Shown here piece after piece: positions 9,379 through 64,000 of a stretch of 64,000 nucleotides of DNA. The position numbers and the translations under genes are program-made. Under the pieces are notes generated by a model. That model did not search any database. It worked only from the letters and a program-made list of their open reading frames with translations, and was not told where the DNA came from. This stretch comes from a virus. Its lineage: Duplodnaviria; Caudoviricetes. Positions within the stretch are counted from its first letter, which is position 1. The number at the start of each line of letters is the position of its first letter. Location: the IMG/VR virus record IMGVR_UViG_3300046733_000629; one strand, written 5' to 3'.

Positions 9379-9379
9379 A

Positions 9380-19977: not shown

Positions 19978-19978
19978 A

Positions 19979-21333: not shown

Positions 21334-21350
21334 AAACCAAGACATTTCGG

Positions 21351-21379: not shown

Positions 21380-21419
21380 ATACAAGTAAGTTAAATTAAT
21401 AACAAGTCAGGAGACTATA

Positions 21420-45974: not shown

Positions 45975-46205
45975 ATGGCTAAAGAAGAAGCTAAAAATAC
46001 TGAAGTTGCATTGTCAATTCAAGACATTGTTCTTTCAGCTAACATTATTGATCTCGCTACACAACGTGGAGCCTTTAAAGCGGCAGAAGCAGGTCAAGTT
46101 GGTGCATGTTTTGAAAAGCTAGTTGCTTTTATCAAAGCTAATACACCAGAATCAGAAGAAAATAAAGAGGCGACAGCAACTAAAGCTGAGTCTCCAAAGG
46201 AGTAA
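45975..46205 (+). CDS. Hypothetical phage protein
   Basis: SD aggag; IIDLATQRGAFKA.E...VG. Confidence 0.75.
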   Translation: MAKEEAKNTEVALSIQDIVLSANIIDLATQRGAFKAAEAGQVGACFEKLVAFIKANTPESEENKEATATKAESPKE

Positions 46206-46209
46206 ACTT

Positions 46210-46845: not shown

Positions 46846-46859
46846 AGTAAGGGGCTATA

Positions 46860-47153
46860 ATGCCAATTGAGAGAAAAGACAGGTCCTTCGATCTGATCTT
46901 TGATCAAGTATCAATGGACCATATTCCGGCTGAATACATAAAGGAGATTATGGTTGATTTAGGTACTGGAGAAAGGATCACGTTGACTAAAGATGATTTA
47001 TTAATGATTAAAAATAAGTCAGCAGATGATATCATTGCCGCACTAACGGTTGACTCAATGTCTAACATTAGTTTGAAGCTTGACTATAGTGCAATTAAAT
47101 CTGATGTACTACGTGGAGTGACAGGATTTTTAGGACAACATTTTGACAAATAG
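46860..47153 (+). CDS. Hypothetical protein
   Basis: 97-aa ORF. Confidence 0.65.
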   Translation: MPIERKDRSFDLIFDQVSMDHIPAEYIKEIMVDLGTGERITLTKDDLLMIKNKSADDIIAALTVDSMSNISLKLDYSAIKSDVLRGVTGFLGQHFDK

Positions 47154-47817
47154 TAATAGTAATATCTGGCTATGCGGTATACCAGGATCTAGATGGAGCG
47201 GAATTGATATACAATTGCGTTCTGTCTTACCTTCTGATCGTTCAGATGAAACACCAGATAGAACACAATACCACAGAGCGTTTGATCCAAATGACCCTAA
47301 CAATGGGCATCGTGGTAGCTATTGGGGCCCTGGTATGGGCTGTGGCGAAGACTGGGTAGACTTTAACTTTTTAACAAAACATAAATTACAAGACGATATC
47401 AACAATGTATTTTCTGGAGAAGGTTATCGTATTATTAAAAGTCATTTCTTTGCAAGGCATTTTAACTTAGATTTTATATGGAATAACTTTCCAGGTGATA
47501 AAATCATACTAGTTTATAGAGAACCACAAAAAAGTTTTGCTTGGTGGAGTGAAGTTATGTGCTTTGATGAAACACATTATCCAGATTACCGTCCAGGCTA
47601 TAAAAACTACGATAGAATGTGGGAAATACTATGGCAAGAAAGTTCTAAGATTACAGACTTTGCACTTAGAAAGAATTTAAATTTCCACACCTTTGATCTT
47701 AATCTATTTAACGAATGGGAAGGATTTGACTTTGACACCGCACAACATTTCAATGGGATAAATACTGATAAGCATAAAGATGTTTATATAGCATCTGCTA
47801 CAATCCCGGAGAAGTAA
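47143..47817 (+). CDS. Sulfotransferase-like / P-loop-related hypothetical protein
   Basis: WLCGIPGSRWS, IIKSH, IILVYREP (pattern typical of sulfotransferase folds). Confidence 0.5.
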   Translation: MTNSNSNIWLCGIPGSRWSGIDIQLRSVLPSDRSDETPDRTQYHRAFDPNDPNNGHRGSYWGPGMGCGEDWVDFNFLTKHKLQDDINNVFSGEGYRIIKSHFFARHFNLDFIWNNFPGDKIILVYREPQKSFAWWSEVMCFDETHYPDYRPGYKNYDRMWEILWQESSKITDFALRKNLNFHTFDLNLFNEWEGFDFDTAQHFNGINTDKHKDVYIASATIPEK

Positions 47818-48522
47818 ATGACATCACCCTTTAAAACGCCTTGGCACTTTGACAAATTTAGAAAAGATGAAGAAGGCGAATACGTAAAGATTGTAGGAAT
47901 CTTAGATGTAGATACAGTTTCAGACATTGTTAAGGCTCGTAGCAAGACTATGCAAAATCAACCTTACAATGAACAAAGATATGAACATGCCGCTAATAAG
48001 AAAAGCGATAATCATATTGAAGAAGATAAAGAAAACCCAGATGGCAAACCAGATGCTACAATGTTTAGAAAAATAAACTTTGATAAGTATCCAGGAGAGT
48101 TTCCACAATTCACAAAAATAGTAGACTTTTTAGCATTTGATACAAGTGAAAAATTAACTTGTAAATTTAATGATCAATATCCTAATGACCAGCTGATGTG
48201 GCATATTGATAATTTACCAGGTAACCCACGTATGGATCGTGTTATTGGCAATCCAGAATTTAAGAAAGCAAGTGGGAATAAAATTAGATTTTTAATTACA
48301 TTAGAAGATTGGGAACCTGGACAGGTATTTCAGTTTGGTAATAGAGTATACACACAATGGAAAGCTGGTACAATATTTACATGGGAATGGAGTACACTAC
48401 CTCACCTAACATGGAATGGTAGTTGGACTAAAAGACCATGCTTACAATTAACAGGAACTGCAACAGACAAGACTTGGGAAATAGTAAGAAACGGATCAGC
48501 TGATCACACATACAAATTTTAA
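47818..48522 (+). CDS. Fe(II)/2-oxoglutarate oxygenase-like (double-stranded beta-helix) protein
   Basis: WHID (HxD), WEPGQVFQFG, AGTIFTW...PH.TWNG...R. Confidence 0.65.
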   Translation: MTSPFKTPWHFDKFRKDEEGEYVKIVGILDVDTVSDIVKARSKTMQNQPYNEQRYEHAANKKSDNHIEEDKENPDGKPDATMFRKINFDKYPGEFPQFTKIVDFLAFDTSEKLTCKFNDQYPNDQLMWHIDNLPGNPRMDRVIGNPEFKKASGNKIRFLITLEDWEPGQVFQFGNRVYTQWKAGTIFTWEWSTLPHLTWNGSWTKRPCLQLTGTATDKTWEIVRNGSADHTYKF

Positions 48523-48527
48523 TGCAG

Positions 48528-48534
48528 ATAAATA
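48528..48534 (+). promoter_or_regulatory. Late-promoter-like ATAAATA
   Basis: In the 30-nt gap before the radical SAM gene at 48553. Confidence 0.55.
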
Positions 48535-48552
48535 ACATTATAAGGAATAAAC

Positions 48553-49977
48553 ATGGCAGATAATAAACTACCAAGCGATACTTTTTGTATCCTACCTTGG
48601 ATTCACCTTTCAACAAGACCAGACGGCAGTATGCGTGTATGTTGTACGGCTAACGCATCAAGTGTTGGAGCAACCAACGACAAAGAACATGGCGGCAGAG
48701 TTGGTATTGTTAGAACAGAAGATGGAAGACCAGCAAACTTAAATAACAGCGATCTAAATAGTTCGTGGAATAATAGCTATATGAGAAGTGTCAGACAAAT
48801 GATGCTTAAAGGCGATAAGCCTGCTAGTTGTTTAAAATGTTATAAAGAAGAAGATGCAGGACACAGATCAAAAAGACAATGGGAAACAGATTACTGGATT
48901 AAAGACGGTATTGATGTAGAACAATTAGTAAAGGAAACTTACGAAGATGGAAGTACTGATAGTAAATTACGGTATATTGATATCCGTATGGGGACGAAAT
49001 GTCAGTTGGGGTGCGTTATGTGTTCTCCACATGATAGTTCCGGCTGGGTAAAAGATTGGAATAAATTATATCCACAAATTACAAACGAGTCATTAAAAGA
49101 AACTATGACTTGGGAAAACAAAGGTAAAGAATTTGGTGCTAGTTATAATTGGCACAAAGACAATCCTGTATTTTGGGAACAATTTTATGCACAGATTCCA
49201 TATATTAGACAATTATATTTTGCTGGTGGTGAATCAACTGTTATTGAAGAACATTACGATATCTTAGATAAAGTTATTGAAATGGGATATGCACATCAAA
49301 TCGAAGTGCGTTATAATAGTAATGGTATTGAAATTCCAGATAGACTATTAGAGCAGTGGAAACATTTTCAAAAAGTAAGATTCCATTATAGTGTAGATAG
49401 CATTGAAGGTATGAATGATTATATTAGATACCCAAGTGAATGGGAACATAATCTAAAACAGTTTGAACTACTAGATACTAGAACAAGTAATAATGTAGAA
49501 ATTACTATTGCTTGTGCAGTTAATGCATTAAACATTCATTATATTCCAGACTTCCTTAAATGGAAACTACAACATGGATTTAAGAAAACAAACATGTGGC
49601 CTTTTGGTGCAGGTGGTATTAACTATCATTTTGTATATTGGCCAGGACACTTAAATGTTAAAGTGCTACCAGATGAATTCCTAGATAAGACTGAAGCTAA
49701 GTACGAAGAATTTATTGAATGGTGGAAAGAAAATTGGGAACTAGGTGTTCCTAGTTGGCACAAAGGCAAAGTATCATACGAGAAATGGCTAGATGCTAGT
49801 TACGGAATTAAACGACTCAGAGGCATGATTAGTTTTGCCCGTAGTGAAGATTGGAGCAGAAGACTTCCTGAATTCAGAGAATACATTAATAAATTAGATG
49901 AATTAAGAGGCACAGACTTCCGTGCTACCTTCCCTGAAATGGCATATCTTCTCGATGAGCCAGATGAAAAGCTATAG
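48553..49977 (+). CDS. Radical SAM protein with N-terminal twitch-like domain (subfamily B)
   Basis: FCILPW...CC...C.KC, GTKCQLGCVMC, YFAGGE. Confidence 0.92.
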   Translation: MADNKLPSDTFCILPWIHLSTRPDGSMRVCCTANASSVGATNDKEHGGRVGIVRTEDGRPANLNNSDLNSSWNNSYMRSVRQMMLKGDKPASCLKCYKEEDAGHRSKRQWETDYWIKDGIDVEQLVKETYEDGSTDSKLRYIDIRMGTKCQLGCVMCSPHDSSGWVKDWNKLYPQITNESLKETMTWENKGKEFGASYNWHKDNPVFWEQFYAQIPYIRQLYFAGGESTVIEEHYDILDKVIEMGYAHQIEVRYNSNGIEIPDRLLEQWKHFQKVRFHYSVDSIEGMNDYIRYPSEWEHNLKQFELLDTRTSNNVEITIACAVNALNIHYIPDFLKWKLQHGFKKTNMWPFGAGGINYHFVYWPGHLNVKVLPDEFLDKTEAKYEEFIEWWKENWELGVPSWHKGKVSYEKWLDASYGIKRLRGMISFARSEDWSRRLPEFREYINKLDELRGTDFRATFPEMAYLLDEPDEKL

Positions 49978-50176
49978 CAATATAATACCAAACGTATCCT
50001 GGAAAGAAGTAAACTTTTTGTTCTTTTGTGTTAAAGGACATTTAATTCCAACAGAATATACAAACGAAGATATTAGAAGTATGTACGATAGTTACTTTAA
50101 AAGACTATGGGGCAACAACGAAAGAATGATTTATTGCAGAGATGAGTTTGAAGAATTATGGGGTATGAAAAACTAA
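49964..50176 (+). CDS. Small hypothetical protein between radical SAM genes
   Basis: 70 aa from ATG 49964; contains LWGNNE. Confidence 0.6.
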   Translation: MKSYSNIIPNVSWKEVNFLFFCVKGHLIPTEYTNEDIRSMYDSYFKRLWGNNERMIYCRDEFEELWGMKN

Positions 50177-50180
50177 ACAT

Positions 50181-51431
50181 ATGGAACTTAGACCCAAAAC
50201 TGTTAGAGAAAAAATAGAAGAACTTCCAACAAAAAGTTATTGTGCATATGCATGGTCAGGTGCAGCAATAGGACCAACCGGTGATGTATTTCCATGTTGT
50301 AGATGGCAAGGACCTCACACTCAAGGTGACCCTAACGTTCCAAACATTAAAGATGGGTTAGTAGCAGCCAGAGAAGGAAAATATTTTTCTAGAATAAGAG
50401 AGCAAATGATCAATGGAGAATATCCTTCTGGTTGTGCTAAATGCTGGAGAATAGAAAAGAAAAGATTAGAAGAAGAAGATGCAGGAATTCCTAGCCCACA
50501 GGATAGTGTACCTAGAGTACAAATTGGTCACAGAATAAAAGTAACATCAACTAAACCTCAAACTGAAAAGATTAGATACTTAGAAACAGGTGTTAGTAAC
50601 TTGTGTAATATGGCATGTGTAATGTGTGGACCATTAGCAAGTAGTACAATATTTTCAATAAAAAATCCAGGTGTAAAAGTTCCCAAAGGCTTTCACCAAG
50701 ATAATACTAACATTGATGATGACTTATCAGAATTACGTTATTTAAAATTTGTAGGTGGTGAGCCTATGTTAGAAAAGAAACATGATGACTTACTAGAAAT
50801 GGTTATTAACCAAAACGCTGATCCTTCTCAACTAGAAATGGAATACCATACTAATGCAAGTGTATTTCCTAGTGAACGTGTTATAGCATGTTGGAAGAAA
50901 ATAAAACTAGTAAGAATTATTTTTAGTTTAGATGGAGTAGGTGACAAAGTTAAACTTCAAAGGCCAGGAAAATATGTTTGGCAAGATTTAGAAGATACTG
51001 TAGATAAGTATGTAGCTATAACTAATGAAGTCAATATAGAATTTTCATCCAATACAGTATTAACTTCATTGAATATAGGACAAGGAATTGATACAGTAAA
51101 ATGGCTTTATAAAAAAGTAGGTAAATGTACGTTAGGTTGGTTTAATGTTAACCCAGAAGTTATGCCAAAGGTATCATCAAAGTATTTAAATCATAGAAAC
51201 CTAAGTAAAGAAACTAAAGAAAGAATTAAAAAAGAAATAGCTGATTTTAAACAATCAGAACACCCGGCATTAAAGACACCAATTGCTAAAATTTTAGATA
51301 TTATTCTACATCACATAGATGAGCATGGTGACTTAGACGAAGACTTGACCAGAGAATTGATTTTAGAAAAACATACTAATAAAGATAGATGGAAACACTT
51401 TGGTGAAGAATTAAAAAATTTAGATATATAG
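50181..51431 (+). CDS. Radical SAM protein (subfamily B)
   Basis: YCAYAW...PCC...CAKC, SNLCNMACVMC, KFVGGEP. Confidence 0.92.
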   Translation: MELRPKTVREKIEELPTKSYCAYAWSGAAIGPTGDVFPCCRWQGPHTQGDPNVPNIKDGLVAAREGKYFSRIREQMINGEYPSGCAKCWRIEKKRLEEEDAGIPSPQDSVPRVQIGHRIKVTSTKPQTEKIRYLETGVSNLCNMACVMCGPLASSTIFSIKNPGVKVPKGFHQDNTNIDDDLSELRYLKFVGGEPMLEKKHDDLLEMVINQNADPSQLEMEYHTNASVFPSERVIACWKKIKLVRIIFSLDGVGDKVKLQRPGKYVWQDLEDTVDKYVAITNEVNIEFSSNTVLTSLNIGQGIDTVKWLYKKVGKCTLGWFNVNPEVMPKVSSKYLNHRNLSKETKERIKKEIADFKQSEHPALKTPIAKILDIILHHIDEHGDLDEDLTRELILEKHTNKDRWKHFGEELKNLDI

Positions 51432-51439
51432 GAAAGAAC

Positions 51440-51976
51440 ATGAAATACATTTTAGTTGCTCTCAAAGAAGAGCTACCAGACCATGATTTACCTTCATCAG
51501 AATTCCAAGTATGGTATACTGGTGTTGGAAAAGTAAACGCATCTATATTTGCTACGTTAGCATGTATACAAAAAGACTGTGAAGCTGTTATTAATTACGG
51601 AACAGCAGGTACATTAAAACCTGAACTAGCCGGACAGTTACTACAAATAGGTACAGTTAGACAACGTGATATGGATGCAAGACCACAAGCAGAATTAGGT
51701 GTTACACCTTTTGATAATTCAGGATTTGATGGTGATATAGAACTTAGTAACAGTGCATACATATTAAGCACAGGTGATAACTTTGTAACGTCAGCACCAG
51801 AACTTGAAAGTGATTGTGTTGATATGGAAGCATATGCAATTGCCAAAGTATGTAAACACTTTCAAAAGCCATTTATATGTTATAAATATATTAGTGATTT
51901 AGCTGATGAGAATGCAGCAAAGACTTGGGTCGAAAATCAATCTAAAGGAGCTGATGCTTTTATAGCAATGACATAA
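51440..51976 (+). CDS. 5'-methylthioadenosine/SAH (5'-deoxyadenosine) nucleosidase
   Basis: TGVGKVNA, INYGTAG, STGDNFV, VDMEAYAIA, KYISD.AD. Confidence 0.88.
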   Translation: MKYILVALKEELPDHDLPSSEFQVWYTGVGKVNASIFATLACIQKDCEAVINYGTAGTLKPELAGQLLQIGTVRQRDMDARPQAELGVTPFDNSGFDGDIELSNSAYILSTGDNFVTSAPELESDCVDMEAYAIAKVCKHFQKPFICYKYISDLADENAAKTWVENQSKGADAFIAMT

Positions 51977-51977
51977 T

Positions 51978-53231
51978 ATGAGTGGATTCTGTGCATTACC
52001 ATTTGTTCAATATAGTACATACAACGGAGGTCGTTTTAGATTATGTTGTATGGCTAAAGAACCTACTGAACTTGTTAATCAAGAGAAGCTAGGTATTGAT
52101 GGTACATGGAATCACAAATATATAAAAGAAGTAAGACGTAAAATGACTGCTGGTGAGAAACTACCAGAGTGTATTGAATGTCATCATTTAGAGCGTAATG
52201 GAATAATGAGTTCACGCCAATGGGAAAACAAAGTATGGGCAGATGTTATTGATGATATAGTAGCAGATGCATCAGCTAATGATTGGAAAGTTGATCAGCC
52301 ATTACAATTTGATTTTAGACTTGGTAACTTATGCAATTTGCAATGCCAGATGTGCAACAAAGAAGCATCTCATTTAGTGAGTGTGGAACGTGCGGCAATG
52401 GTACAAAGCGGACTCGGAGCGAACCATCCTGATTGGGACGGCAATATTGCAAATAAAAAAGAAGCATTACTTCAACCAGGGATTGAATGGGAAAGTTTTG
52501 AAAGAATGTTACCTTATGCTCGTAAGATAAAACTGATAGGTGGCGAACCAACAGTAGCACAAGATATGTTTAAGTTGTTAGATATTGCAACAGAAAGTGG
52601 ACATGCTGAACATATTGAATTAAGTTTTTACACAAACATAACTAACATGCAAGACAAATGGCTTAATCAACTAGCTAAGTTTGAGAAAGTAATTGTTAAC
52701 TGTTCGTTAGAAGGAATGGGAGATATGAATGATTATTTACGTCCTCCATCTAAATGGGCAAGTGTTTGGAAGAATTTTGATAAATTAGTACAGTTTGCTG
52801 ATACTAAAGCAGGTAAGCGTATTAAGGTACGTGTTACTACAGTAAACCAAATGACCAACGCATTGCATATAACTAAGTTTTGGAAGTATATGCATGATTA
52901 CCAGATGACTAGTAATAGAGGCATTGGCATGAGTACCAATCAGTTAGTAGAGCCGGCATACTATAGCATGGCAAATGCTCCTGAATGGTTAAAGAAAGAA
53001 CAACGTGAACAGATTTTGGAATTTCTCAAAAGCATTGGCAATAGTCCGCATTTTGAGCAATATGAAGAACCTCTTATGGAGGTTGTTAATTTTAGTTTGG
53101 ATACTGAGCATAAGTATGATGCTGACATCATGCAACAGTATGTTCAAATCACAGAAAACTACGACAGATTCAGACAACACGATATTACCAAAGTGTCGCC
53201 CGAATTTGAAAGAATTAAAAGAGACCTCTGA
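51978..53231 (+). CDS. Radical SAM protein (subfamily B)
   Basis: FCALPF...CC...C.EC, GNLCNLQCQMC, KLIGGEP. Confidence 0.92.
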   Translation: MSGFCALPFVQYSTYNGGRFRLCCMAKEPTELVNQEKLGIDGTWNHKYIKEVRRKMTAGEKLPECIECHHLERNGIMSSRQWENKVWADVIDDIVADASANDWKVDQPLQFDFRLGNLCNLQCQMCNKEASHLVSVERAAMVQSGLGANHPDWDGNIANKKEALLQPGIEWESFERMLPYARKIKLIGGEPTVAQDMFKLLDIATESGHAEHIELSFYTNITNMQDKWLNQLAKFEKVIVNCSLEGMGDMNDYLRPPSKWASVWKNFDKLVQFADTKAGKRIKVRVTTVNQMTNALHITKFWKYMHDYQMTSNRGIGMSTNQLVEPAYYSMANAPEWLKKEQREQILEFLKSIGNSPHFEQYEEPLMEVVNFSLDTEHKYDADIMQQYVQITENYDRFRQHDITKVSPEFERIKRDL

Positions 53232-53288
53232 TATAACTGAAGCAGAAACTTATCGTCAGTGGGATTGTAAATGGAGTATTGATTTTTA

Positions 53289-54434
53289 ATGAAGTATGGA
53301 TTTAACAGTTGGAATAGTTGGGATAGACTAAAAGAATGCATGGTTGGCAATGTATATCCTACAGATTTCTTTTCAGTATATAAAGATAAAAGAATAGGTG
53401 ATGCATTAGAAAAAGTAAATGAAGATTCTAGACAAGATATTGCCAACCTTATTAATATTTTAAAAAGTGCAAGTGTCAAAGTAATACAAACGCCTAGTAA
53501 GTTTATAGACAAACGAGGCAATACAATTGATGATGTAAATAAAAACATTGAATATAGTAATACAATTCAAAAACCAATGCTTAGTCCTAGAGATGATTTT
53601 ATTGTAATGGGTGATACACTAGTTAATACAAGTGCTAATCATGCATATAACACATGGGGACCGTGGCAAGGTTGTGATGACTATATTAATCTTACTCGTG
53701 ATTTTGATGAAAAGTGGAATGATCCAGAAATGACTAAGTTCAAGGAAACATTAATGACGGATGAGTTTGATGTAGATGCACCTTGTATTATGCGAGCAGG
53801 TAAAGATATACAAGTTGATATAAGCCATCATAACAAAGGAACTATGGAATTTGCTAATACTTGGTTACCTAAACATATGCCTAATTTTAGAGTAAACACA
53901 ATAGAAATGGGTGGACACAGTGATGCAGTTATTTGTTTAGTTAAGCCAGGATTAATTATAAGTCATAGAAAAGTTAATAATTATGATGAACTATATCCTG
54001 GATGGGAAGTAATATATGTAGACAGACCAATGGACGAATATATAGATGCATATTGGGAACAAAAGAATAATATACCTAGTGTAATTAATTACTGGATAGA
54101 TGGTCAAGAAAGTAATAATGTATTACATGAATTTATAGGCAAGTGGATGCAAGTAGGACATGTTTACGAAACACATTTTAATGTTAATTGTTTAAGCATA
54201 GACGAAAGTACACTTGTATGTAATTATTATGATAAAGAACTAGCACAGAAATTAAAAAAACATAATGTTGAATTAGTAGAAGCACCAATGAGACACAGAC
54301 ATTTTTGGGATTGTGGAGTACATTGTGCAACAGTTGATTTGATAAGAGAAGGTGAATGTAAGGATTATTTTCCAACTAGAAAACAAGGACAATTTTTTGG
54401 AAAGCCGTGGGGAAATAATGAGACAAGAAGATAA
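53289..54434 (+). CDS. Amidinotransferase (glycine / inosamine-phosphate amidinotransferase family, pentein fold)
   Basis: NSWDRLKECMVG, PRDD, GGHSD, NCLSID, HCAT (catalytic His and Cys). Confidence 0.85.
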   Translation: MKYGFNSWNSWDRLKECMVGNVYPTDFFSVYKDKRIGDALEKVNEDSRQDIANLINILKSASVKVIQTPSKFIDKRGNTIDDVNKNIEYSNTIQKPMLSPRDDFIVMGDTLVNTSANHAYNTWGPWQGCDDYINLTRDFDEKWNDPEMTKFKETLMTDEFDVDAPCIMRAGKDIQVDISHHNKGTMEFANTWLPKHMPNFRVNTIEMGGHSDAVICLVKPGLIISHRKVNNYDELYPGWEVIYVDRPMDEYIDAYWEQKNNIPSVINYWIDGQESNNVLHEFIGKWMQVGHVYETHFNVNCLSIDESTLVCNYYDKELAQKLKKHNVELVEAPMRHRHFWDCGVHCATVDLIREGECKDYFPTRKQGQFFGKPWGNNETRR

Positions 54435-55641: not shown

Positions 55642-55671
55642 AACTAATAGTTAATCATTACATTCTCTGAA

Positions 55672-55678
55672 ATAAATA
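55672..55678 (+). promoter_or_regulatory. Late-promoter-like ATAAATA
   Basis: Intergenic, 31 nt before 55710. Confidence 0.55.
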
Positions 55679-55709
55679 TAATAAAGACAAATTCTATAGG
55701 AGATTAATT

Positions 55710-57122
55710 ATGGCACAAAAAGCGTTTATGGCAGATGCTGGAGTTCGTTTAAACGATTGGACTATCGTAGAATTAGCAAATGGCGATCTGCAAGTTTCAA
55801 ATATGCATACAATATCAGGCTCACAACGAATGTTTAGAGTTGATAAAGGATTACGTATTGGTGATTGGAGAATGACTATTGACGGTAACGGAGATATGTT
55901 ATTATCAGAGACTGCAATAACAGGATCGCAAAGACCTTTTATAGCAGATGGCGGAGTTAAGATTGGTGATTGGACATTACATCAAACACCAGACGGTGAT
56001 CTACATGCAGAAAAAGATGCAGTATCAATAAACTATAGCTTATCGTGCGATTATTCAACAGTTAATGAAGGTGGTACAGTTACCATAACGTTAACAACAA
56101 CAGGCGTAGCCAATGGAACTACCTTGCCATATACAATTACAGGAGTTGCTAGTGCAGATATTGATAATGCTAGCCTTACAGGAAACTTTGTAACTGGAAC
56201 AACTGATTCCATAACTTTAAACATTACAGCTGATACTACTACAGAAGGAACAGAAACTTTACAAATAGCATTAGATAATGGCAACGCAAGTAAGAGTGTT
56301 ACAATTAATGATACATCAACAACACCAGCTACTCAAGACGCTTCTGATTTTAATTGGAGCGTAACAACAACAATTGATCATTCTACTAATGGTGCTAATA
56401 CTATCAGCAGTAGTAATTATGACGATGCAAATTATCAGGCGCAATTAGCAGAAGGTGATACTATGACATGGACAGCAACAACAAATGCACCAAATGGAAC
56501 TACAGTATATTTCACTACTGTTTCAACATATTATGGTAGCTATGATTCAGCTGGTGATCCAAATTGGAATGACATATCAGGTAATCCTGGAACAAGTGGA
56601 ACTCTAACAGTTTCAAACGGACAAGTTAGTGCTACTATAACTGCGATAAGTGATAACACCGCAGAAGATGGCGAACTGAGACAAGTTTGGTTAATGAAAC
56701 AAGCAGGTGATTATAGTAATGTTCTTTCTAAATCACAATGGTTCCATATTGCTGATCCATCACAAAACTGGACTGCTCCATCGTCAGGTGAAACATTTAC
56801 AGGTGGTGAATACTACATGGACTCAGGCTCATCACAAGCACAATGGTATACAGCAGCTGACGGTTCAAATGGAAACGCACAAGTCCGTATTAGAATAGAT
56901 GAAGGACACGATCATGACTTACGCCGTGATATTAACTATGTTCTAGATAACTTATCAACAGGTGATACATTCTATGTTGGTACAACATCAGGAACTTCAA
57001 TGACAGTAACAGGTAATATTACTAAGACTCAAATCAGTGGCGATTATTATGATTATTACTTTGATGTAAGTGTAGCACCATCAAGTACAACATACTTTTA
57101 CGAATATACAGTAGTAGCATAA
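55710..57122 (+). CDS. Probable virion or fibre-type protein with three N-terminal repeats of about 35 aa and Calx-beta/Ig-like domains
   Basis: Q..F..D.G..I.DW......GD repeats; VNEGGTVTITLTTTGVANGTTLPYTITGV; Thr/Ser/Gly-rich. Confidence 0.6.
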   Translation: MAQKAFMADAGVRLNDWTIVELANGDLQVSNMHTISGSQRMFRVDKGLRIGDWRMTIDGNGDMLLSETAITGSQRPFIADGGVKIGDWTLHQTPDGDLHAEKDAVSINYSLSCDYSTVNEGGTVTITLTTTGVANGTTLPYTITGVASADIDNASLTGNFVTGTTDSITLNITADTTTEGTETLQIALDNGNASKSVTINDTSTTPATQDASDFNWSVTTTIDHSTNGANTISSSNYDDANYQAQLAEGDTMTWTATTNAPNGTTVYFTTVSTYYGSYDSAGDPNWNDISGNPGTSGTLTVSNGQVSATITAISDNTAEDGELRQVWLMKQAGDYSNVLSKSQWFHIADPSQNWTAPSSGETFTGGEYYMDSGSSQAQWYTAADGSNGNAQVRIRIDEGHDHDLRRDINYVLDNLSTGDTFYVGTTSGTSMTVTGNITKTQISGDYYDYYFDVSVAPSSTTYFYEYTVVA

Positions 57123-57130
57123 TAAATAGA

Positions 57131-57961
57131 TTATAGATTTATAATTCTTTTAGCCATGCATAGGTCAGGCTTAACCAAGCTCTCATTTAATATATCAGCT
57201 TCAAAACATTGTAGCTTTGTACCAAACACAATTTGATGTGTTATCCATTGTGCATTAAAGAACCAAATGTCACCTGGATTAAAAGTAATATAATGTAATG
57301 GGTGGTGAAATTGATCCCATTGTTGTTCATTCCAAACACATCTATTACGCATTTCAGTAATAAATGTATGTATATCGTTTTTGTTTAACTCACCTAAATT
57401 AAATTCATCTTTATAATCATAGTACATTTTTTCTAAGTCAGGTCCAAAAGATAACACTCTAGGACGTTTCTTATCTAGTTGTACAAACATACGTATCTGT
57501 TGTTCATTGCCTGTATGTTGTTCATCTAGTTCGTCTAGGTGTAGTTTATTTTCTACTAATGTATTGTATCTGTGACTGAGCATACGTTCGGTTGTTTTGT
57601 AATGTGGGAATAGCATATCAAATACTTCGTTCCAACCTTGTTGTGATTGTTTATGCTTCTTATGAAACAAGTCTATTTGTTCCTCAGACCAATTACGTTC
57701 ATCTCTTAATCTATTACGTTTTTTGATATGGCTGTTATACCATGGCATAATCCATTTATTATCGGGGATAGTCCAATCTGGTAAGTCGTTATAATAATCA
57801 TAATCAAGTTGTGGAATAGTTAAGTTCTTAATAACCACTGGCCATCCGCTCTCAAATGCTTCGTATACCTTATAATTATCTGTTAAATCTTCTTTCTTTG
57901 CGTCAAACACATTGACAACAAAGTCGTCTCCTGCTATAATATCTTTAGCGATTCGGGTCAT
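57131..57961 (-). CDS. Kdo hydroxylase (KdoO)-like Fe(II)/2OG dioxygenase
   Basis: LFPHY, KLHLDE, IRMFVQL...PRVLSFG, FNPGDIWFF...TH.IVFG resemble KdoO motifs. ATG at 57961 with SD ggag; the track start at 58123 is too long. Confidence 0.65.
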   Translation of the reverse strand: MTRIAKDIIAGDDFVVNVFDAKKEDLTDNYKVYEAFESGWPVVIKNLTIPQLDYDYYNDLPDWTIPDNKWIMPWYNSHIKKRNRLRDERNWSEEQIDLFHKKHKQSQQGWNEVFDMLFPHYKTTERMLSHRYNTLVENKLHLDELDEQHTGNEQQIRMFVQLDKKRPRVLSFGPDLEKMYYDYKDEFNLGELNKNDIHTFITEMRNRCVWNEQQWDQFHHPLHYITFNPGDIWFFNAQWITHQIVFGTKLQCFEADILNESLVKPDLCMAKRIINL

Positions 57962-57983
57962 ATGTACTCCATTATATATGTAG

Positions 57984-57997
57984 ATAAATATATTTAT
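57984..57997. promoter_or_regulatory. Palindrome ATAAATATATTTAT, a candidate bidirectional late promoter
   Basis: Lies between divergent genes and is identical to 5266-5279. Confidence 0.6.
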
Positions 57998-58676
57998 GAC
58001 AGTTGATAATGGTACATATGCTGGTTTAAATATAAATTTTATGCGAGTTGGCAGAAGATTTAATGTTGATGCTAGTACCAGATGTAATTTATTATGCCCA
58101 GGTTGTACAAGAACACAAGACATGGCGGCTGGAAATCGTAATTGGGATATAACAGATTTAAAACTTGAATACTTACAAGCATTGTTACATCCTAGAAATA
58201 GAATTAGTTGTGTTACTTATAATGGTGCTCTTAGCGATCCAATATACAGTGGTACAATGACAGAACAATTGGAATATATTAATACTTTAGAATTTAGACC
58301 CAGAGTAATTATTTCAACTAATGGCAGTGGACGTAATGAAAAGTGGTGGAAACATTTTTCTAGTTTATTAAGAAAACAAGATTGGCTACAATTTAGCATT
58401 GACGGATTAGAAGATACTAATCACATATATAGAGTCAATGCAAGATGGAATAGTATTATGGCAGGAGTAAAAACTGTCAGAGAAAATTGGAATGGAAGTC
58501 TATGGTGGAGATACGTAGTGTTTGAACACAATTATCATCAAGTAGGTAAAGCTAAACAATTAGCTGAGGAGTTGGGATTTGATAAATTTCAACCAATGGT
58601 TGGTGATAGAAGAACTCCGGCACATATGTTATTAAAAAGTGCAACATGGCAAGAGATATTAAATGATATATCCTAG
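57996..58676 (+). CDS. Radical SAM core domain (subfamily A, split)
   Basis: CNLLCPGC, GALSDP, FSIDGLEDTNHIYR, WRYVVFEHN. Confidence 0.9.
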   Translation: MTVDNGTYAGLNINFMRVGRRFNVDASTRCNLLCPGCTRTQDMAAGNRNWDITDLKLEYLQALLHPRNRISCVTYNGALSDPIYSGTMTEQLEYINTLEFRPRVIISTNGSGRNEKWWKHFSSLLRKQDWLQFSIDGLEDTNHIYRVNARWNSIMAGVKTVRENWNGSLWWRYVVFEHNYHQVGKAKQLAEELGFDKFQPMVGDRRTPAHMLLKSATWQEILNDIS

Positions 58677-59016
58677 ATGCAAAGTAGTAGGACCAAACGC
58701 TAACTCAGAAGCAATGTCAATGAGATTTGACGGCTATGTTGTTCCATGTTGTCATATGAATAGTCAACATGCAATGGATAAGTTATCATTGTTCTTGGGT
58801 AAAGATGTAAAAAATATACACATTACAAGTGGACATAGTATAGATGAAATAAATACTAGCAAAGAATATAAACGTATTGAAGATAGTTGGAACACACCTA
58901 CACCTTTTTCAATTTGTAAAAGTGCATGTGGTAGACCAGGTGAAATAGGTCCAGACATACATCGCACAGGAACACAATTCGTTCAAAAGACTTTAAACAA
59001 GGATACACATGAATAA
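58663..59016 (+). CDS. Stand-alone SPASM/twitch-like Cys domain
   Basis: YPRC...FDGYVVPCC...CKSAC. Confidence 0.75.
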   Translation: MIYPRCKVVGPNANSEAMSMRFDGYVVPCCHMNSQHAMDKLSLFLGKDVKNIHITSGHSIDEINTSKEYKRIEDSWNTPTPFSICKSACGRPGEIGPDIHRTGTQFVQKTLNKDTHE

Positions 59017-60076
59017 ATCAGTAAATGCATGGAGCGAGTTTCAACCGCTAAAAAAAGTAGTGCTTGGCGCTCCGTTTCCACCTGAAACATTTGATTGGCA
59101 TAAGGACAAAGAGACTCGTGATGTTATGCGTCAGATCTTTACAGAAACAGCAGAGGACTTACAAGTGCTGGAGGGGATATTAAAGGGCAAAGGTATTGAA
59201 GTAATACGTCCAAAGAATATATTTACAATCACAGGTGAAGAACAGATTCAATTACCATGGATGCATTGTGGTTTTCCAAACCACCCATTAATGCCACGTG
59301 ATACATTAATGCCATATGGTAATAGTATTTTTGAACTGTTTACAGGTAGCGATAATCGCTACTTTGAAAATCTCGCATATTACGATCATTGTAGTAAATG
59401 GTTTCGTGAAGGTGCAGATTGGGTTAGTATGCCAGGAGTACTAGTAGAGAGTGGTAAAAAATACGACCACTTTGTAAAAAACGATCGACTGCTTTATCAT
59501 GCGGCTAATATGATAAAGTGTGGACGCCACGTTTTGTTTAGCCAACCTTACGAGGGAGACAATAAACGAGGCAGAGGAACGGCACTGGGCCGCGAATGGA
59601 TTCAACGTGAAATAAAGTTGCGATATCCAGACACCCAATTTTTGGACATACCAGTAGGAGGACACATCGACGGAAAAATAGCTCTACTAAAACCTGGCGT
59701 ACTGATGACCTGGAATAAAAACTGGGTACCAGAAGAAATGAAAAACTGGACTATTATTGAAGTAGATGATGACTTTGATATGCCCGAAGACTTTCAACAA
59801 ACTCGTAAGCGTAGATTTCATAAAGAATATGTAAGCAAGTGGTTAGAGCATTGGGTAGGTTGTCCAGATGAAAGTGTGTTTGATGTTAATGTATTATCAT
59901 TAGATGAAAGCACAGTTATTTGTACAGGAAAAAACGAACAAGCATTTGCTGAAATGGAAGCACACGGCATTGAACCAATTTACTGGAATTTTAGACATCA
60001 GTATTTTTGGGATGGTGGCATTCACTGTTTAACAAGTGATATAGTTAGAGAAGGAGATTGTGAGAGTTATGTATAA
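59009..60076 (+). CDS. Amidinotransferase (third paralog)
   Basis: WSEFQPLKKVVLG, PRD, GGHIDG, DGGIHCLT. Confidence 0.88.
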   Translation: MNKSVNAWSEFQPLKKVVLGAPFPPETFDWHKDKETRDVMRQIFTETAEDLQVLEGILKGKGIEVIRPKNIFTITGEEQIQLPWMHCGFPNHPLMPRDTLMPYGNSIFELFTGSDNRYFENLAYYDHCSKWFREGADWVSMPGVLVESGKKYDHFVKNDRLLYHAANMIKCGRHVLFSQPYEGDNKRGRGTALGREWIQREIKLRYPDTQFLDIPVGGHIDGKIALLKPGVLMTWNKNWVPEEMKNWTIIEVDDDFDMPEDFQQTRKRRFHKEYVSKWLEHWVGCPDESVFDVNVLSLDESTVICTGKNEQAFAEMEAHGIEPIYWNFRHQYFWDGGIHCLTSDIVREGDCESYV

Positions 60077-60413
60077 TCATTTAAAAAATTACATTGGAAT
60101 ATATCTATTAGCAATGGTATGTTTTCTAATATATGCATCTGAACCAACAGATGAAATACCAGTTTGGATATGGTATCTTTTCATTCCAGTAGTTTTATGG
60201 AAAACGCCACCGTTTAATATTGGTGATTGGTTTTGGGGTAAAGTAGCAAGTTTTTGGATGTGGATATTGAAACCATTTACAAGATGGCAAAACACTTGGC
60301 CTACATGGGTAAAGTATGTGTTTGGTATTGTACTTATTATATTGTTTGAAGAATATATTTTAAAGCCAGCAGGCTACACAATGTATCCTTGGAGAATAGA
60401 TTTTAATGGCTGA
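60069..60413 (+). CDS. Trp-rich membrane protein
   Basis: Two to three hydrophobic segments; ATG at 60069. Confidence 0.65.
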   Translation: MYNHLKNYIGIYLLAMVCFLIYASEPTDEIPVWIWYLFIPVVLWKTPPFNIGDWFWGKVASFWMWILKPFTRWQNTWPTWVKYVFGIVLIILFEEYILKPAGYTMYPWRIDFNG

Positions 60414-61467
60414 TATAATGGAATGGCATAAAAATGTTACTTCATTGCAGTTTGACATTAGTAGTCATTGCAATGCACGTTGCGGTGCATGTGTAAGAAA
60501 CAAAGATGGCGGGGAAACTGAATCAAATTTAGAACTAGCACATTTTGATTTTGACTTATGGAAACGTATAGCATATGAAGATACTAAACGTTGGTATATA
60601 CATAGACTAAATCTAAATGGAAATTGGGGCGATCCAATGATGCATCCAAAATTAGTAGAAATGATGGAAGTATGGTTAGATGCACACCCAAGAAGTACAC
60701 CATCAATTGCAACAAATGGAAGTATGAGAGGACCAAAGTTTTGGCATGACTTAGCTAGTGTAATGCATCACTTTCCAAATCATAAAGTAGACTTCTCAAT
60801 TGATGGAATGGGAGACACACATAGCATATATCGTAGACGTACAGACTTTAATAAAATTTGTGAAAATGTAAAATCGTTTTCCGAAGCAGGCGGGCATGCT
60901 ACAATACAATTTACAATGTTTGAACATAACGAACATCAGCATAAAGAAGTTGAAGATTTAGCAAGGTCGTTAGGAGCAATGCAACTTGTTAAACGTAGAA
61001 GTCATTCTTCAAATATGGTTATAAAAGATAAAGATGAAGAATATAAAATAACAGCAACTGAAGGTATTCCAGAAGAAAGAATAAAATTAAAAGATGATAG
61101 AATTGAAAGTACAAATCCACACAAAGTACATATATTAGAAGCAAGTGATATGTATGATACTTATTTGAACACTTCAGAAAAACAAAAAACAAAATGTCCT
61201 TGGTACAATGCACAAGAGATTCAAATTGATCCTTGGGGTACAGTTTGGCCATGTTGTCATGTTAGTCTATTTGGAGTTCATTTAGAAAAGCATAATATTG
61301 CTAATGAAGTAGATGAAACATTTGTACAGGCTAGAAAAGATAATAATTTAAAAGATAGTTCTTTGTATGATATATTAAAGTCTGATTGGTATAACGAACA
61401 TGTTAAGTTAAGCGTCAAAGGCGCAAAATGGAAAACATGTCAACGAACATGTGGAGTTGAAGCATAA
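60406..61467 (+). CDS. Radical SAM/SPASM-like protein (subfamily A)
   Basis: CNARCGAC, GNWGDP, FSIDG...YR, DPWGTVWPCC...CQRTC. Confidence 0.92.
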   Translation: MADIMEWHKNVTSLQFDISSHCNARCGACVRNKDGGETESNLELAHFDFDLWKRIAYEDTKRWYIHRLNLNGNWGDPMMHPKLVEMMEVWLDAHPRSTPSIATNGSMRGPKFWHDLASVMHHFPNHKVDFSIDGMGDTHSIYRRRTDFNKICENVKSFSEAGGHATIQFTMFEHNEHQHKEVEDLARSLGAMQLVKRRSHSSNMVIKDKDEEYKITATEGIPEERIKLKDDRIESTNPHKVHILEASDMYDTYLNTSEKQKTKCPWYNAQEIQIDPWGTVWPCCHVSLFGVHLEKHNIANEVDETFVQARKDNNLKDSSLYDILKSDWYNEHVKLSVKGAKWKTCQRTCGVEA

Positions 61468-62717
61468 TGTATAAAAATCCTATGTTAGATGATCATAGAT
61501 TCCCTACATGTTTAGCACCATGGAACGCATTAACTATTAAGTGGGGCGGTGCAGTATTGCCTGACATTATTTACAATGGCAAGTTTGGAAACATTACAAG
61601 ACAAACATTACCAGAGATATTAAACAGTGAAGAAGCAGTAGCATTGCGTAAGTCGCATGCAAGTAGAATAGTTCCAGAAGCATGTTTAGCATGTACCAAA
61701 AAAGAACAAAGCGGTAAAAGTCGTAGAATGTATTTTTGGGATAAACTTGATGTCGATGTTAAAAAAGGAAGTATTAAGAACACAGCAAACAGTAAGCCTG
61801 ACATACGTTATTTAGATTTTACAATCAGTAATAAATGTAATTTAGCATGCATACATTGTAATCCTTTTGTAAGTACAGGGTGGACCAAAGATGGAAAGAA
61901 ACTAAACAAAGAAAAGCCAGACTATTGGAAACAAGCACAAATAGGATATCACGGTGTAGAAGATATGACATTCCTTGATAACTTGTTTGCTGATCCAGAC
62001 TATTTTCGTAACCTACAGTGGGTAGCATTAAGAGGCGGAGAGCCATTGTATGATGAGAGTTGTAAAGCAATATTACAGTGGTTTATTGATCAAGGACTAG
62101 CAAAGAATATTATGCTAGACATTAGTACAAATGCTACAGTTTTCGATGATGACTTTCAGGAGATATTTAAACACTTTAAGCATATTGAATTGCTTATCAG
62201 TATTGAAGCAGTAGATGAATTATACAGTGTAGTACGAGGAGGATCGTATACATTTAAAGAATTAGAAGAAAACATAGAAAAGTTTTATACATATCCTAAC
62301 ATTGAAGTTGTGTTTGCAGTAACAGTTATGTTAACAAACGTATTTGGGTTAGACAAAGTATGGGACTGGTTTAAAGAAAAACACATGCATAGAGCAAGTA
62401 TAAGCATGAGTAATGTTGTAGTTAATCCTACATATTTAAATATTGCATACATGCCAGATGTGTTAAAATATATTATGTATGATAAGCTATTGTCTATTCC
62501 AGATCAAAGCATTTGGCCTAAAGGCAGTTATCATGTAGACGAAATACATTACCAAACTGGAATACATGCTATCAGAGATGGATTACAAGTTGAGGTAAAC
62601 GAAAAAGAACAAGAAAAGCAATGGGATTGGTTTGTCAAGTATACAAAAGACTTAGACAGATTACGTGGAACAAACACGTTTGAATTAATAAAGGAGTTAA
62701 AATTATATGAACAGTAA
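61467..62717 (+). CDS. Radical SAM protein (subfamily B)
   Basis: TCLAPW, ACLAC, SNKCNLACIHC, ALRGGEP. Confidence 0.92.
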   Translation: MYKNPMLDDHRFPTCLAPWNALTIKWGGAVLPDIIYNGKFGNITRQTLPEILNSEEAVALRKSHASRIVPEACLACTKKEQSGKSRRMYFWDKLDVDVKKGSIKNTANSKPDIRYLDFTISNKCNLACIHCNPFVSTGWTKDGKKLNKEKPDYWKQAQIGYHGVEDMTFLDNLFADPDYFRNLQWVALRGGEPLYDESCKAILQWFIDQGLAKNIMLDISTNATVFDDDFQEIFKHFKHIELLISIEAVDELYSVVRGGSYTFKELEENIEKFYTYPNIEVVFAVTVMLTNVFGLDKVWDWFKEKHMHRASISMSNVVVNPTYLNIAYMPDVLKYIMYDKLLSIPDQSIWPKGSYHVDEIHYQTGIHAIRDGLQVEVNEKEQEKQWDWFVKYTKDLDRLRGTNTFELIKELKLYEQ

Positions 62718-63645
62718 CCCAGATTTTGGTACCAGTGGCAACAGCGTCTGGAATCAACAATATTTTGATTTTTTAAATGAAACATTCTTTCCTAAAATTG
62801 ATATCACTACAATTGCTGATGAATCAAATATTATGCTTGATAGATATCAAGGATGGATAGAAAGTAGTACATTAAATAAATTTAAAGGACTAGACGCATT
62901 TCCAATGCGTTATGCAAGCGTTGGTACTACGCAAGCGTTAGATTGGTGGCATTATTATTGTGCAGTTAACAACATGGATCTAAAAATGTTTAGAGGAGAG
63001 TACCCATATCATAGAGATGCATACTTACAAACTCATTTGGGTTGGGATGATTGTATTGAAGATTGTGGATTAATTGCAGGTGATGCAGTTGTAGTAAGTG
63101 TTCCATTTAGTGCAACAGGCAGACTTCCAATACAATGGGAAGACTTAATGAAAACATGTAACAGACTAAAGATTCCAGTGTTTGTTGATTGTGCATGGTT
63201 TGGAACTTGCTTTGGTATTACTGTTAACTTAGATGAACCATGTATTAAAATGGTTGCATTTAGTACAACAAAAGGACTTAGTTGTGGTAACTGGCGTGCA
63301 GGTATTGTGTTTAGTAAAGTAAACGAAAAAGACTTTAAACGTGCTACTGATGGTAGCTTAGAAACACAAACAGATTGGAATCATGGTAATCATCTTAATA
63401 CTGCTATTGCTAACAGATTAATGGCAGAGTTTTCACCAGATACTATTCCTAAAAAATATATGGCATCGCACATGGCAGTATGTAAACATTATGGATTAAT
63501 TCCTACACAAACTGTACATATTGCAGAAGGTGCTCGTGGAACTGAATGGGACGTATTTCATAGAGATGAAACATACAATAGAATTAATATTTCAAAAGCA
63601 TTGAAGCGACACAAGAACAAGGGAAACTTTTATGACAACATATGA
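62707..63645 (+). CDS. PLP-dependent (fold type I) aminotransferase or decarboxylase-like enzyme
   Basis: VFVDCAWFG (D-x-A) and FSTTKGL...RAG (Schiff-base Lys). Confidence 0.75.
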   Translation: MNSNPDFGTSGNSVWNQQYFDFLNETFFPKIDITTIADESNIMLDRYQGWIESSTLNKFKGLDAFPMRYASVGTTQALDWWHYYCAVNNMDLKMFRGEYPYHRDAYLQTHLGWDDCIEDCGLIAGDAVVVSVPFSATGRLPIQWEDLMKTCNRLKIPVFVDCAWFGTCFGITVNLDEPCIKMVAFSTTKGLSCGNWRAGIVFSKVNEKDFKRATDGSLETQTDWNHGNHLNTAIANRLMAEFSPDTIPKKYMASHMAVCKHYGLIPTQTVHIAEGARGTEWDVFHRDETYNRINISKALKRHKNKGNFYDNI

Positions 63646-64000
63646 TGATCCTATTAACATAACAACTAAAGGACAATATCCAATTAGAGCCCATATGGTA
63701 TTTAATAACATGGGTCCAGAAAACTGTGAAGATATCCTTTGGCAGAATGTAATAGATTCAACAAGTAATCTTGAAGGAAACGAAATAGGTGTAAGTGTAA
63801 CACAGAGTTATCAATATACAAAGTTAAATGACGATCCAACTATTATGGTTAGATGGCAAGGTATTAAGACTACAAATGGTAATGAATTTAGAATTGGTCT
63901 AGGAAAAGGAATACCAGCAGATAAAAGAACACCACCTATAATGTCTGGCAATATGAAAACCGGAGTGCAAGTCAATAGTACACTATCTATACAATCAGTA
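63632..64000 (+). CDS. Hypothetical protein, 3'-truncated by the window edge (not in the ORF track)
   Basis: Open from ATG 63632 (MTTYDDPINITTKGQYP) to the end of the window. Confidence 0.65.
   Translation, partial: MTTYDDPINITTKGQYPIRAHMVFNNMGPENCEDILWQNVIDSTSNLEGNEIGVSVTQSYQYTKLNDDPTIMVRWQGIKTTNGNEFRIGLGKGIPADKRTPPIMSGNMKTGVQVNSTLSIQSV

Follow-up and report, generated by a model that had tools for sequence, protein, structure and literature searches.

A cluster of radical S-adenosylmethionine enzymes, amidinotransferases and a pyridoxal phosphate enzyme in a large aquatic phage: a possible system for guanidinylating a host-made scaffold

We analyzed a 64,000-nucleotide stretch of DNA from an uncultured marine jumbo phage (Caudoviricetes; IMG/VR record IMGVR_UViG_3300046733_000629), referred to below as the window, with a focus on the enzyme genes at positions 47143-64000. 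This region combines radical S-adenosylmethionine (rSAM) enzymes, amidinotransferases and a pyridoxal phosphate (PLP) enzyme, and we tentatively read it, with somewhat less than even confidence, as a segment of a conserved tailoring system common to large aquatic phages and Bdellovibrionales, which would aminate and guanidinylate a host-made scaffold to give a surface-polymer product. The cluster probably adds a guanidino group to some molecule. Synteny and gene fusions together indicate that the functional core is a pair made of an rSAM enzyme and the PLP enzyme, the amidinotransferase being a frequent add-on. A preliminary description of this DNA had pointed to a near-contiguous enzyme run of about 17 kb, and all the gene classes that it listed are present: we counted 18 open reading frames (ORFs), many of them abutting or overlapping by a few bases, with a coding share of 97.6%. 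The DNA of the window is AT-rich (about 34 to 37% GC), and nearly all of its genes lie on the plus strand, as do the features of the 47143-64000 region given below unless marked (-). Genes are referred to by their start coordinates.

The core pair consists of NTwi61467 (61467-62717), an rSAM enzyme with an N-terminal twitch domain (N_Twi), and PLP62707 (62707-63645), of which it is the constant neighbor. In a set of 51 viral loci from 16 lineages anchored on the PLP gene, the PLP gene was immediately preceded by an N_Twi gene, or fused with one, in 46 loci and 13 lineages. Natural fusions occur in both orders, N_Twi::PLP (P0264 and P0268; 805 and 845 aa) and PLP::N_Twi (P0291; 699 aa). An amidinotransferase was located at most two genes away from the PLP gene in 30 of the 51 loci; since this was the case in only 7 of the 16 lineages, we consider it an add-on to the rSAM-PLP core. 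Two further fusions, PhyH::PLP (P0290) and PLP::methyltransferase (P0284), fit a scheme in which an amine would be made and then derivatized.

Relatives of AT59009 (59009-60076), the core amidinotransferase, were found in 20 IMG/VR loci. In the near group, where this protein is 79 to 93% identical, the cluster starts with a sulfotransferase-like gene, an oxygenase, an N_Twi gene, a second and variable N_Twi gene, a nucleosidase, another N_Twi gene and a variable amidinotransferase. It continues with a Kdo-hydroxylase-like gene (Kdo, 3-deoxy-D-manno-octulosonic acid) on the minus strand, a variable split rSAM gene, the amidinotransferase, an rSAM gene, an N_Twi gene and the PLP gene, behind which lie additional N_Twi genes. 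The far group, in which the amidinotransferase is 47% identical, retains a gene similar to the N_Twi gene 48553 (66%), the amidinotransferase, an N_Twi gene and the PLP gene, and has other rSAM genes in addition, one of them B12-binding. The genes are not randomly assorted: AT59009, NTwi61467 and PLP62707, with the rSAM gene 60406 as a variable member, remain neighbors in viral lineages with protein identities as low as 47%, as well as in metagenome-assembled genomes (MAGs) of Bdellovibrionales. In a scan of species-representative genomes, the amidinotransferase clade (45 to 50% identity) was found almost only in Bdellovibrionales-type MAGs, where the loci hold up to a dozen rSAM genes. Six such MAG records, one of them on a 917-kb contig, carry the core as PLP, N_Twi, amidinotransferase, N_Twi and Kdo-hydroxylase-like genes. 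Megablast of the 17-kb stretch against 50,697 phage records gave no match, and tblastn with the 48553-type rSAM enzyme returned only the Ralstonia jumbo phage RsoM2USA (23%) and a marine single-cell virus fragment.

PLP62707 was confirmed as a fold-type-I PLP enzyme of the class I/II aminotransferase type (PF00155, 25.1 bits against a cut-off of 19.7). It is short (312 aa), and an exhaustive search with this protein yielded 324 homologs. The ring-nitrogen residue Asp161 is invariant both in the alignment of close relatives and in an alignment of 66 sequences, while the Schiff-base Lys189 is invariant in the former and nearly invariant in the latter. Class I/II PLP enzymes align to the AlphaFold2 (AF2) model (predicted local distance difference test [pLDDT], 93) at Z scores of 19 to 22 over 280 to 300 residues, and the 50 best Foldseek and 50 best VIA-align matches were all amino-acid/keto-acid class I/II enzymes. 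DegT-type sugar aminotransferases (StsC, BtrR, ArnB) were absent from the 50 best matches of either structural method, and the profile of the PLP family had no significant match among PDB sequences. The predicted complex of NTwi61467 and PLP62707 scored 0.00; this prediction was run without controls and weighs neither for nor against binding.

The preliminary description had claimed six rSAM enzymes, and six were found, every one with a CX3CX2C motif. Four of them match NF033640 (N_Twi_rSAM, "twitch domain-containing radical SAM protein") above its curated cut-off of 170 bits: 48553 (48553-49977; 413 bits, E value of 1.2e-123), 50181 (50181-51431; 208 bits, 2e-61), 51978 (51978-53231; 302 bits, 7e-90) and NTwi61467 (254 bits, 2e-75). 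To our knowledge, NF033640 is a sequence subfamily only, with no assigned reaction, and a literature search on N-terminal twitch rSAM enzymes or on marine jumbo-phage rSAM clusters found nothing relevant. According to Pfam, a SPASM-type domain precedes the rSAM core in three of the four proteins. Three also carry a C..CC..CxxC pattern at the N terminus, as in 48553 (C12, C30/31, C93 and C96, with CX3CX2C at residue 150), while NTwi61467 has lost the CC pair and has just three N-terminal cysteines (C15, C73 and C76). The fifth enzyme, 60406 (60406-61467; PF04055 and PF13186), is an ordinary rSAM enzyme with a C-terminal SPASM domain (C264, C283/284, C345 and C349), and its gene lies between those of the amidinotransferase and the N_Twi enzyme in most near relatives. 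The N-terminal spacing C-x17-CC-x41-61-CxxC of the N_Twi enzymes mirrors its C-terminal spacing C-x18-CC-x60-Cx3C, and by this pattern the N_Twi enzymes look like circular permutations of 60406.

The sixth rSAM enzyme is split into a core without an auxiliary-cluster domain of its own (57996-58676; PF04055, 27.5 bits; CX3CX2C at residue 30) and a stand-alone SPASM/twitch protein (58663-59016; PF13186, 25.1 bits; C6, C29/30, C85 and C89), whose ORFs overlap by 14 nucleotides in different frames. Because the identical split is kept in the relatives L009 (8987-9995) and L019 (9002-9998), at 46 to 56% identity (56% for the core), it is not a sequencing error, and the enzyme could either truly have two subunits or be made through a programmed frameshift. 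As for the other members, 48553 is the most conserved gene of the set (83 to 92% identity in near relatives, 66% in the far lineage; 2878 database homologs), 51978 is 74 to 92% identical in near relatives, and 50181 is a variable, accessory gene whose orthologs are 53 to 60% identical or absent. Orthologs at 83 to 92% identity, set against 23 to 30% among the paralogs of the cluster, argue for distinct and fixed roles rather than redundant copies. By sequence, we found no specific relationship to BtrN or anSME that would identify the rSAM enzymes as dehydrogenases, as had been proposed: matches to anSME models fell far under the cut-offs (TIGR03942, E value of 2e-5; PRK13758, 4e-4), and many other SPASM families matched at least as strongly.

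Some side observations were made on the rSAM genes of relatives. The record of locus L003 (G001) contains a 916-aa open frame (19460-22159) with two consecutive NF033640 matches, possibly a tandem rSAM-rSAM fusion. In the far lineage, locus L014 (17726-19579) carries a B12-binding rSAM gene followed by a redoxin gene, neither of which is found in the window stretch. Selenocysteine encoded by in-frame TGA codons in some N_Twi matches was considered and rejected, the stops falling outside the true ORFs.

All three amidinotransferases named in the preliminary description are true members of the family and retain the GGH.D and HC.T motifs. A profile built on 39 sequences matched SxtG, StrB1, HsvA and AGAT with E values of 3.5e-59 to 1e-49, versus 3e-3 for arginine deiminase, and each window protein, searched singly against the PDB, matched only amidinotransferases (seven sequences). 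For AT59009, the phmmer matches were HsvA (4.9e-25), SxtG (7e-20), StrB1 (1.6e-16) and AGAT (about 4e-13), with nothing else. Residues C340, H219, D221, R97 and D98 are invariant across the 39 sequences, including all three window proteins, and these invariant residues are the equivalents of AGAT Cys407 (HC.T), His303/Asp305 (H.D) and Asp170 (PRD). The other two enzymes, AT53289 (53289-54434; best PDB match HsvA, 1.8e-7) and the accessory AT54415 (54415-55641; match to phrog_25854, 3e-15), are 46% identical to each other and 28 to 30% identical to AT59009. Orthologs of AT54415 (72 to 86%) are found in about half of the near relatives (L002, L007, L008, L012 and L013) and are weaker or absent elsewhere. 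AT53289 is a paralog seen only in the window, its best match in relatives being a 54415-type gene at 36 to 42%. On these grounds, the window amidinotransferases are candidates for the arginine-dependent transfer of an amidino group to an amine.

The remaining enzymes could supply SAM turnover and further decoration. A nucleosidase of the methylthioadenosine (MTA)/S-adenosylhomocysteine type (51440-51976) matches PF01048 over the cut-off (63 bits), as had been claimed. It is short (178 aa) and matches NCBIfam nucleosidase models with E values down to 2.7e-26, all under the equivalog cut-offs; it likely clears 5'-deoxyadenosine, and a nucleosidase also adjoins the rSAM cluster of an unrelated viral lineage, L025. 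The window also encodes a SAM synthetase, MetK (31106-32203).

The two Fe(II) oxygenase-like proteins of the preliminary description find support in language-model look-alikes (0.96 each) and in an invariant HxD...H motif, but they have no Pfam or PDB sequence match. The first, a cupin or Fe(II)/2-oxoglutarate (2OG) oxygenase-like protein of 234 aa (47818-48522; H129-x-D131 and H196), resembles a viral cluster in which 90% of the members carry PF05118. The profile of its family matches a 2OG oxygenase adjoining an amidinotransferase in the phage S-SCSM2R (2.8e-13), and a separate downstream gene in L002 matches PF05118 (7.5e-11). The second, a Kdo-hydroxylase-like Fe(II)/2OG dioxygenase (57131-57961 [-]; 276 aa from the conserved start; H141-x-D143 and H242), shares 217 features with bacterial clusters in which 49 to 60% of the members carry PF11004, and Pfam gave no match at E values up to 5. 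Viral lineages 0 and 6 have conserved its gene, as have the Bdellovibrionales MAGs. Within an otherwise collinear block, this single gene is inverted: it lies on the plus strand in L002 and L012 (9110-9937) and on the minus strand in all others.

Similarly, the sulfotransferase-like protein (47143-47817; 224 aa) takes its label from its predicted fold and has no Pfam or PDB sequence match. Its five best VIA-align matches to the AF2 model (pLDDT, 93) are all sulfotransferases (Z of 10.6 to 8.5), headed by the tyrosylprotein sulfotransferases (TPSTs) TPST1 (10.6), tick TPST (10.2) and TPST2 (10.1), with P-loop kinases next at a Z of about 8. Foldseek E values were 0.03 or weaker, and the motifs for binding of 3'-phosphoadenosine 5'-phosphosulfate are similar by eye only. 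The gene is present in most close relatives, and GxPGS.WSG and R126/S131 are invariant. Profiles of both oxygenase-like families and of the sulfotransferase-like family found nothing significant among PDB sequences.

Taken together, these assignments suggest the following scheme. The N_Twi rSAM enzyme and the short PLP enzyme would act as a core pair on a shared substrate. On a scaffold already present in the cell, the rSAM enzyme would activate a carbon, by oxidation or otherwise; the PLP enzyme would then install an amine at this carbon, and the amidinotransferase would convert this amine into a guanidino group. Further decorations might come from the sulfotransferase-fold protein, the oxygenases and the remaining rSAM paralogs, while MetK and the nucleosidase would keep SAM available and remove inhibitory 5'-deoxyadenosine. 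The order of oxidation, amination and amidination, already put forward in the preliminary description, is the best reading and fits the synteny and the rSAM/PLP fusions; the single steps are those we infer, and the earlier analogy with sugar aminotransferases is not supported.

The loci examined showed neither a scaffold synthase nor a precursor peptide, and for this reason we take the scaffold to be probably host-made. What fits best is a sugar-type unit with a keto-acid or amino-acid function, such as a Kdo-like ulosonic acid of the envelope or a glycan-linked amino acid. The sugar-type target is favored because of the glycosyltransferase contexts in phages and the Kdo-hydroxylase-like core gene, and the keto-acid or amino-acid function because of the amino-acid-type fold of the PLP enzyme; a Kdo-like ulosonic acid would satisfy both hints, which is speculation. 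As the destination of the product, a surface polymer of the virion or of the infected cell is the most likely. A more daring version, which we consider rather unlikely, is that N_Twi rSAM and PLP enzymes form a new two-enzyme, sometimes one-polypeptide, module that aminates an unactivated carbon or an alcohol of a Kdo-like sugar acid or amino-acid unit of the host envelope, the amine then being capped with a guanidino group by phages and predatory Bdellovibrionales, so as to recharge or disguise the Gram-negative surface. A link to a CMP-sugar synthetase (PF02348) was considered and dropped: this gene occurs in two far relatives, about 120 to 150 kb from the cluster, and was not found in the fragments of near relatives.

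Several observations weigh against the amination and guanidinylation of a host-made scaffold. Transaminase, lyase, decarboxylase and oxoamine synthase are all candidate reaction classes for PLP62707, which is not of the DegT sugar type. The alignment column that we take, from a HMMER alignment to SxtG and the AGAT numbering, to be that of the AGAT triad residue Asp254 (FDAAD) is variable across the amidinotransferase alignment and holds a histidine in AT59009 (HAAN), an aspartate in AT53289 and a serine in AT54415. The oxygenase assignments are leads and not hidden Markov model matches. No glycosyltransferase, nucleotidyltransferase or transporter was recognized in the 47- to 64-kb region or in the Bdellovibrionales islands examined. 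A complete relative of 328,149 bp with terminal repeats has a single amidinotransferase, flanked by N_Twi genes and 33 kb away from the PLP gene, and its N_Twi genes are scattered over many places rather than forming one assembly line. Moreover, as there are 14 to 25 N_Twi matches but only one or two PLP genes per genome, most of the rSAM enzymes cannot feed a transaminase. Finally, the functions given for the members of the cluster are all predictions from sequence and modeled structure.

An alternative, which we consider unlikely, is that the cluster serves protein or peptide maturation: rSAM enzymes, oxygenases and the sulfotransferase would modify virion or secreted proteins, and the amidinotransferases would turn lysine or ornithine into homoarginine- or arginine-like residues. 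Characterized SPASM rSAM enzymes are mostly peptide or protein maturases, and the secondary NCBIfam matches of the cluster include PapB, MftC and anSME. The 47143 protein is structurally most similar to tyrosylprotein sulfotransferases, PF05118 (Asp/Asn beta-hydroxylase-like) comprises protein hydroxylases, and purified virions of S-SCSM2R contained an amidinotransferase and a 2OG oxygenase (PMC12801897). A potential target also lies inside the cluster, namely, a 470-aa protein (55710-57122) that carries three sequence repeats at the N terminus and a long region rich in Thr and Ser and for which no family match was obtained. Nearly all of this ORF is spanned by RNA-library contigs identical to the window, and the protein might serve as a virion decoration or itself undergo modification. 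However, it is found in few relatives only (L007, L008, L013, L036 and L048). All-versus-all clustering of ORFs of at least 40 aa from 55 loci in 16 lineages revealed no conserved precursor peptide, the conserved families being enzymes and frame shadows only; no ORF family, small or large, was conserved across the 16 lineages besides the enzymes. In addition, a class I/II PLP enzyme fused to an rSAM enzyme would be unexpected for a peptide substrate, and twitch domains, with one auxiliary cluster, typify enzymes that act on small molecules, BtrN and MoaA among them.

The repeat protein is one of three non-enzyme ORFs in the region. The second (60060-60413) encodes a small, hydrophobic, membrane-like protein, judged accessory, with a close ortholog only in L007 and L013 (97%), a weaker one in L008 (39%) and no family match. 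The third (63632-64000) crosses the end of the window, has a 71% ortholog of 150 aa in L002 and L012 and likewise matches no family. Past this point, the clusters of relatives extend with further N_Twi rSAM genes and a PF05118 protein.

We also considered whether the region might not be a single pathway at all but an accessory-gene hot spot of expanded rSAM paralogs with independent targets, in which only the N_Twi-PLP and amidinotransferase-N_Twi modules are functional units. The scale of the rSAM expansion speaks for this view: partial carrier genomes have 15 to 25 NF033640 matches and the complete 328-kb relative has 14, scattered as described above, against none over the cut-off in 14 control genomes. 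Close relatives vary in NTwi50181, AT54415, AT53289, the split rSAM gene, the repeat protein and the orientation of the Kdo-hydroxylase-like gene. The region is also divided by a perfect sigma-70-type promoter match (57912-57940; TTGACA-17-TATAAT, 12/12, with a TG extension), the sole one in 46000-64000, where promoter-like sites are overall at chance level. Located in the 5' part of the Kdo-hydroxylase-like gene, which runs on the minus strand, and 56 nucleotides ahead of the rSAM gene 57996, this match suggests that the genes from 57996 onward form a separate transcription unit. Against this view stand a core whose gene order and composition persist over identities of 93% to 47% and into bacteria, and genes that abut or overlap at a coding share of 97.6%; we find independent targets quite unlikely.

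Hypermodification of nucleic acids, in which the cluster would make a modified base or complete one (for instance, by amidinating an aminated 7-deazaguanine or a thymidine side chain), seems improbable to us. The window does encode a DpdA-like protein (38% identical to that of the Pseudomonas jumbo phage PA5oct), DpdA homologs are present in four of five carrier genomes tested, and the Campylobacter phages of the CP220 type combine a QueD-like gene with an rSAM/amidinotransferase module; moreover, rSAM and PLP enzymes are known to act in thymidine hypermodification. Against this, the same core resides in Bdellovibrionales chromosomes, no DNA transferase, glycosylase or kinase was recognized within the cluster, the DpdA set lies 30 kb off, and one carrier fragment has no DpdA. 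Equally doubtful is a free guanidino metabolite, for instance a guanidino amino acid or a polyamine carrying an amidino group, that would condense DNA inside the capsid or manipulate hosts or competitors: HsvA, the best solved relative of AT59009, amidinates spermidine (PMC6187163), MetK and an MTA-type nucleosidase also help the polyamine pathway, and the fold of PLP62707 matches the arginine-handling RohP, MppP, GntC and MppQ, tied with ordinary transaminases, but neither spermidine synthase nor AdoMet decarboxylase was recognized among the scanned window ORFs, no exporter was seen, and the many rSAM enzymes, the oxygenases and the sulfotransferase would be left unexplained.

Beyond the cluster, the window has four further non-QueE rSAM-type genes upstream, three within 4087-11670, at 4087 (-), 9408 and 10453 (N_Twi), and one at 25803 (25803-26480); the gene at 4087 combines a Pfam match to SPASM only with CX3CX2C. 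Other window genes encode two alginate-lyase-like proteins (40110 and 41399), ThyX, a thymidine kinase, an M17 aminopeptidase and a subtilase. In L025, a cluster of ten rSAM genes is flanked by genes for NifU/Nfu, an Fe-S assembly protein, an FTR1 iron permease and a ferredoxin-reductase-like protein; the flanking set of L025 and L026 (284-2822 and 19777-20507) also includes ClpS and ClpP and looks like virus-encoded support for Fe-S enzymes. DNA of the window was found in seawater metagenomes from at least 13 studies, and contigs from marine RNA libraries that are identical to the window cover several cluster genes, including 50181, AT59009 and the repeat protein, which hints at their expression.

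Phages common in seawater devote tens of kilobases to this system, with 14 to 25 paralogs of an uncharacterized rSAM family. Solving one reaction, ideally that of the rSAM::PLP fusion, would assign a chemistry to NF033640 and explain a module known since 2010 from Campylobacter phages. A possible outcome is a new guanidino-bearing modification of the surface or the virion, with a bearing on host range and receptor masking.

The preliminary description knew of no characterized phage pathway with this composition. This holds in the literature that we searched, but uncharacterized precedents have been published. Timms et al. described in 2010 an exchangeable block of five rSAM genes and a putative glycine amidinotransferase gene, without an assigned function, in the Campylobacter phages CP220 and CPt10 (PMC2853527). 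Its amidinotransferase is homologous to those of the window (24.5% identity by tblastn; E value of 4e-64 with the window-family profile), and the block is followed by two GT-A genes, with a PAP2 phosphatase two genes further on. Unlike the window, CP220 has no Kdo-hydroxylase-like gene, no PLP-family member could be detected in it, its N_Twi-like rSAM genes amount at most to a single weak candidate, and both the host and the phage lineage of CP220/CPt10 are unrelated to those of the window phage. The cultured marine Synechococcus phage S-SCSM2R brings together the same four enzyme classes, which its authors labeled "antibiotic synthesis genes" in 2025 with no function given, and its virion preparation contained one of the amidinotransferases and one oxygenase (PMC12801897). 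In this phage, one amidinotransferase adjoins KdsA/KdsB and 2OG oxygenases, and the second stands in a run with five glycosyltransferases, a PLP enzyme annotated as DegT/AHBA_syn, one rSAM enzyme and a PF05118-like oxygenase; an amidinotransferase and a PF05118-like oxygenase are neighbors in this genome. It differs from the window in that its single rSAM enzyme is not of the N_Twi type, its PLP enzyme is of the DegT type and glycosyltransferase genes are interspersed among these genes.

The analogy with aminocyclitol biosynthesis drawn in the preliminary description stands for the amidinotransferase, StrB1 being a true homolog (profile E value of 1.5e-58), but not for the PLP enzyme, which is not of the StsC/BtrR (DegT) type. 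The logic of BtrN with BtrR and of StsC with StrB1, i.e., oxidation, PLP-dependent transamination and arginine-dependent amidination in sequence, would be shared. Like the twitch enzymes, BtrN has a single auxiliary cluster; in the window, however, the twitch domain is N-terminal, the PLP enzyme is of class I/II and no cyclitol synthase was recognized. A host-supplied scaffold, with no need for a scaffold synthase, is also used by ArnA/ArnB (L-Ara4N) and KdnB/KdnA (Kdo8N), which oxidize and then transaminate a lipopolysaccharide sugar, although we know of no amidination in either route and, in the window, oxidation and transamination would be carried out by different enzyme families. The Kdo-hydroxylase-like gene of the window core recalls envelope cationization and KdoO, by analogy only.

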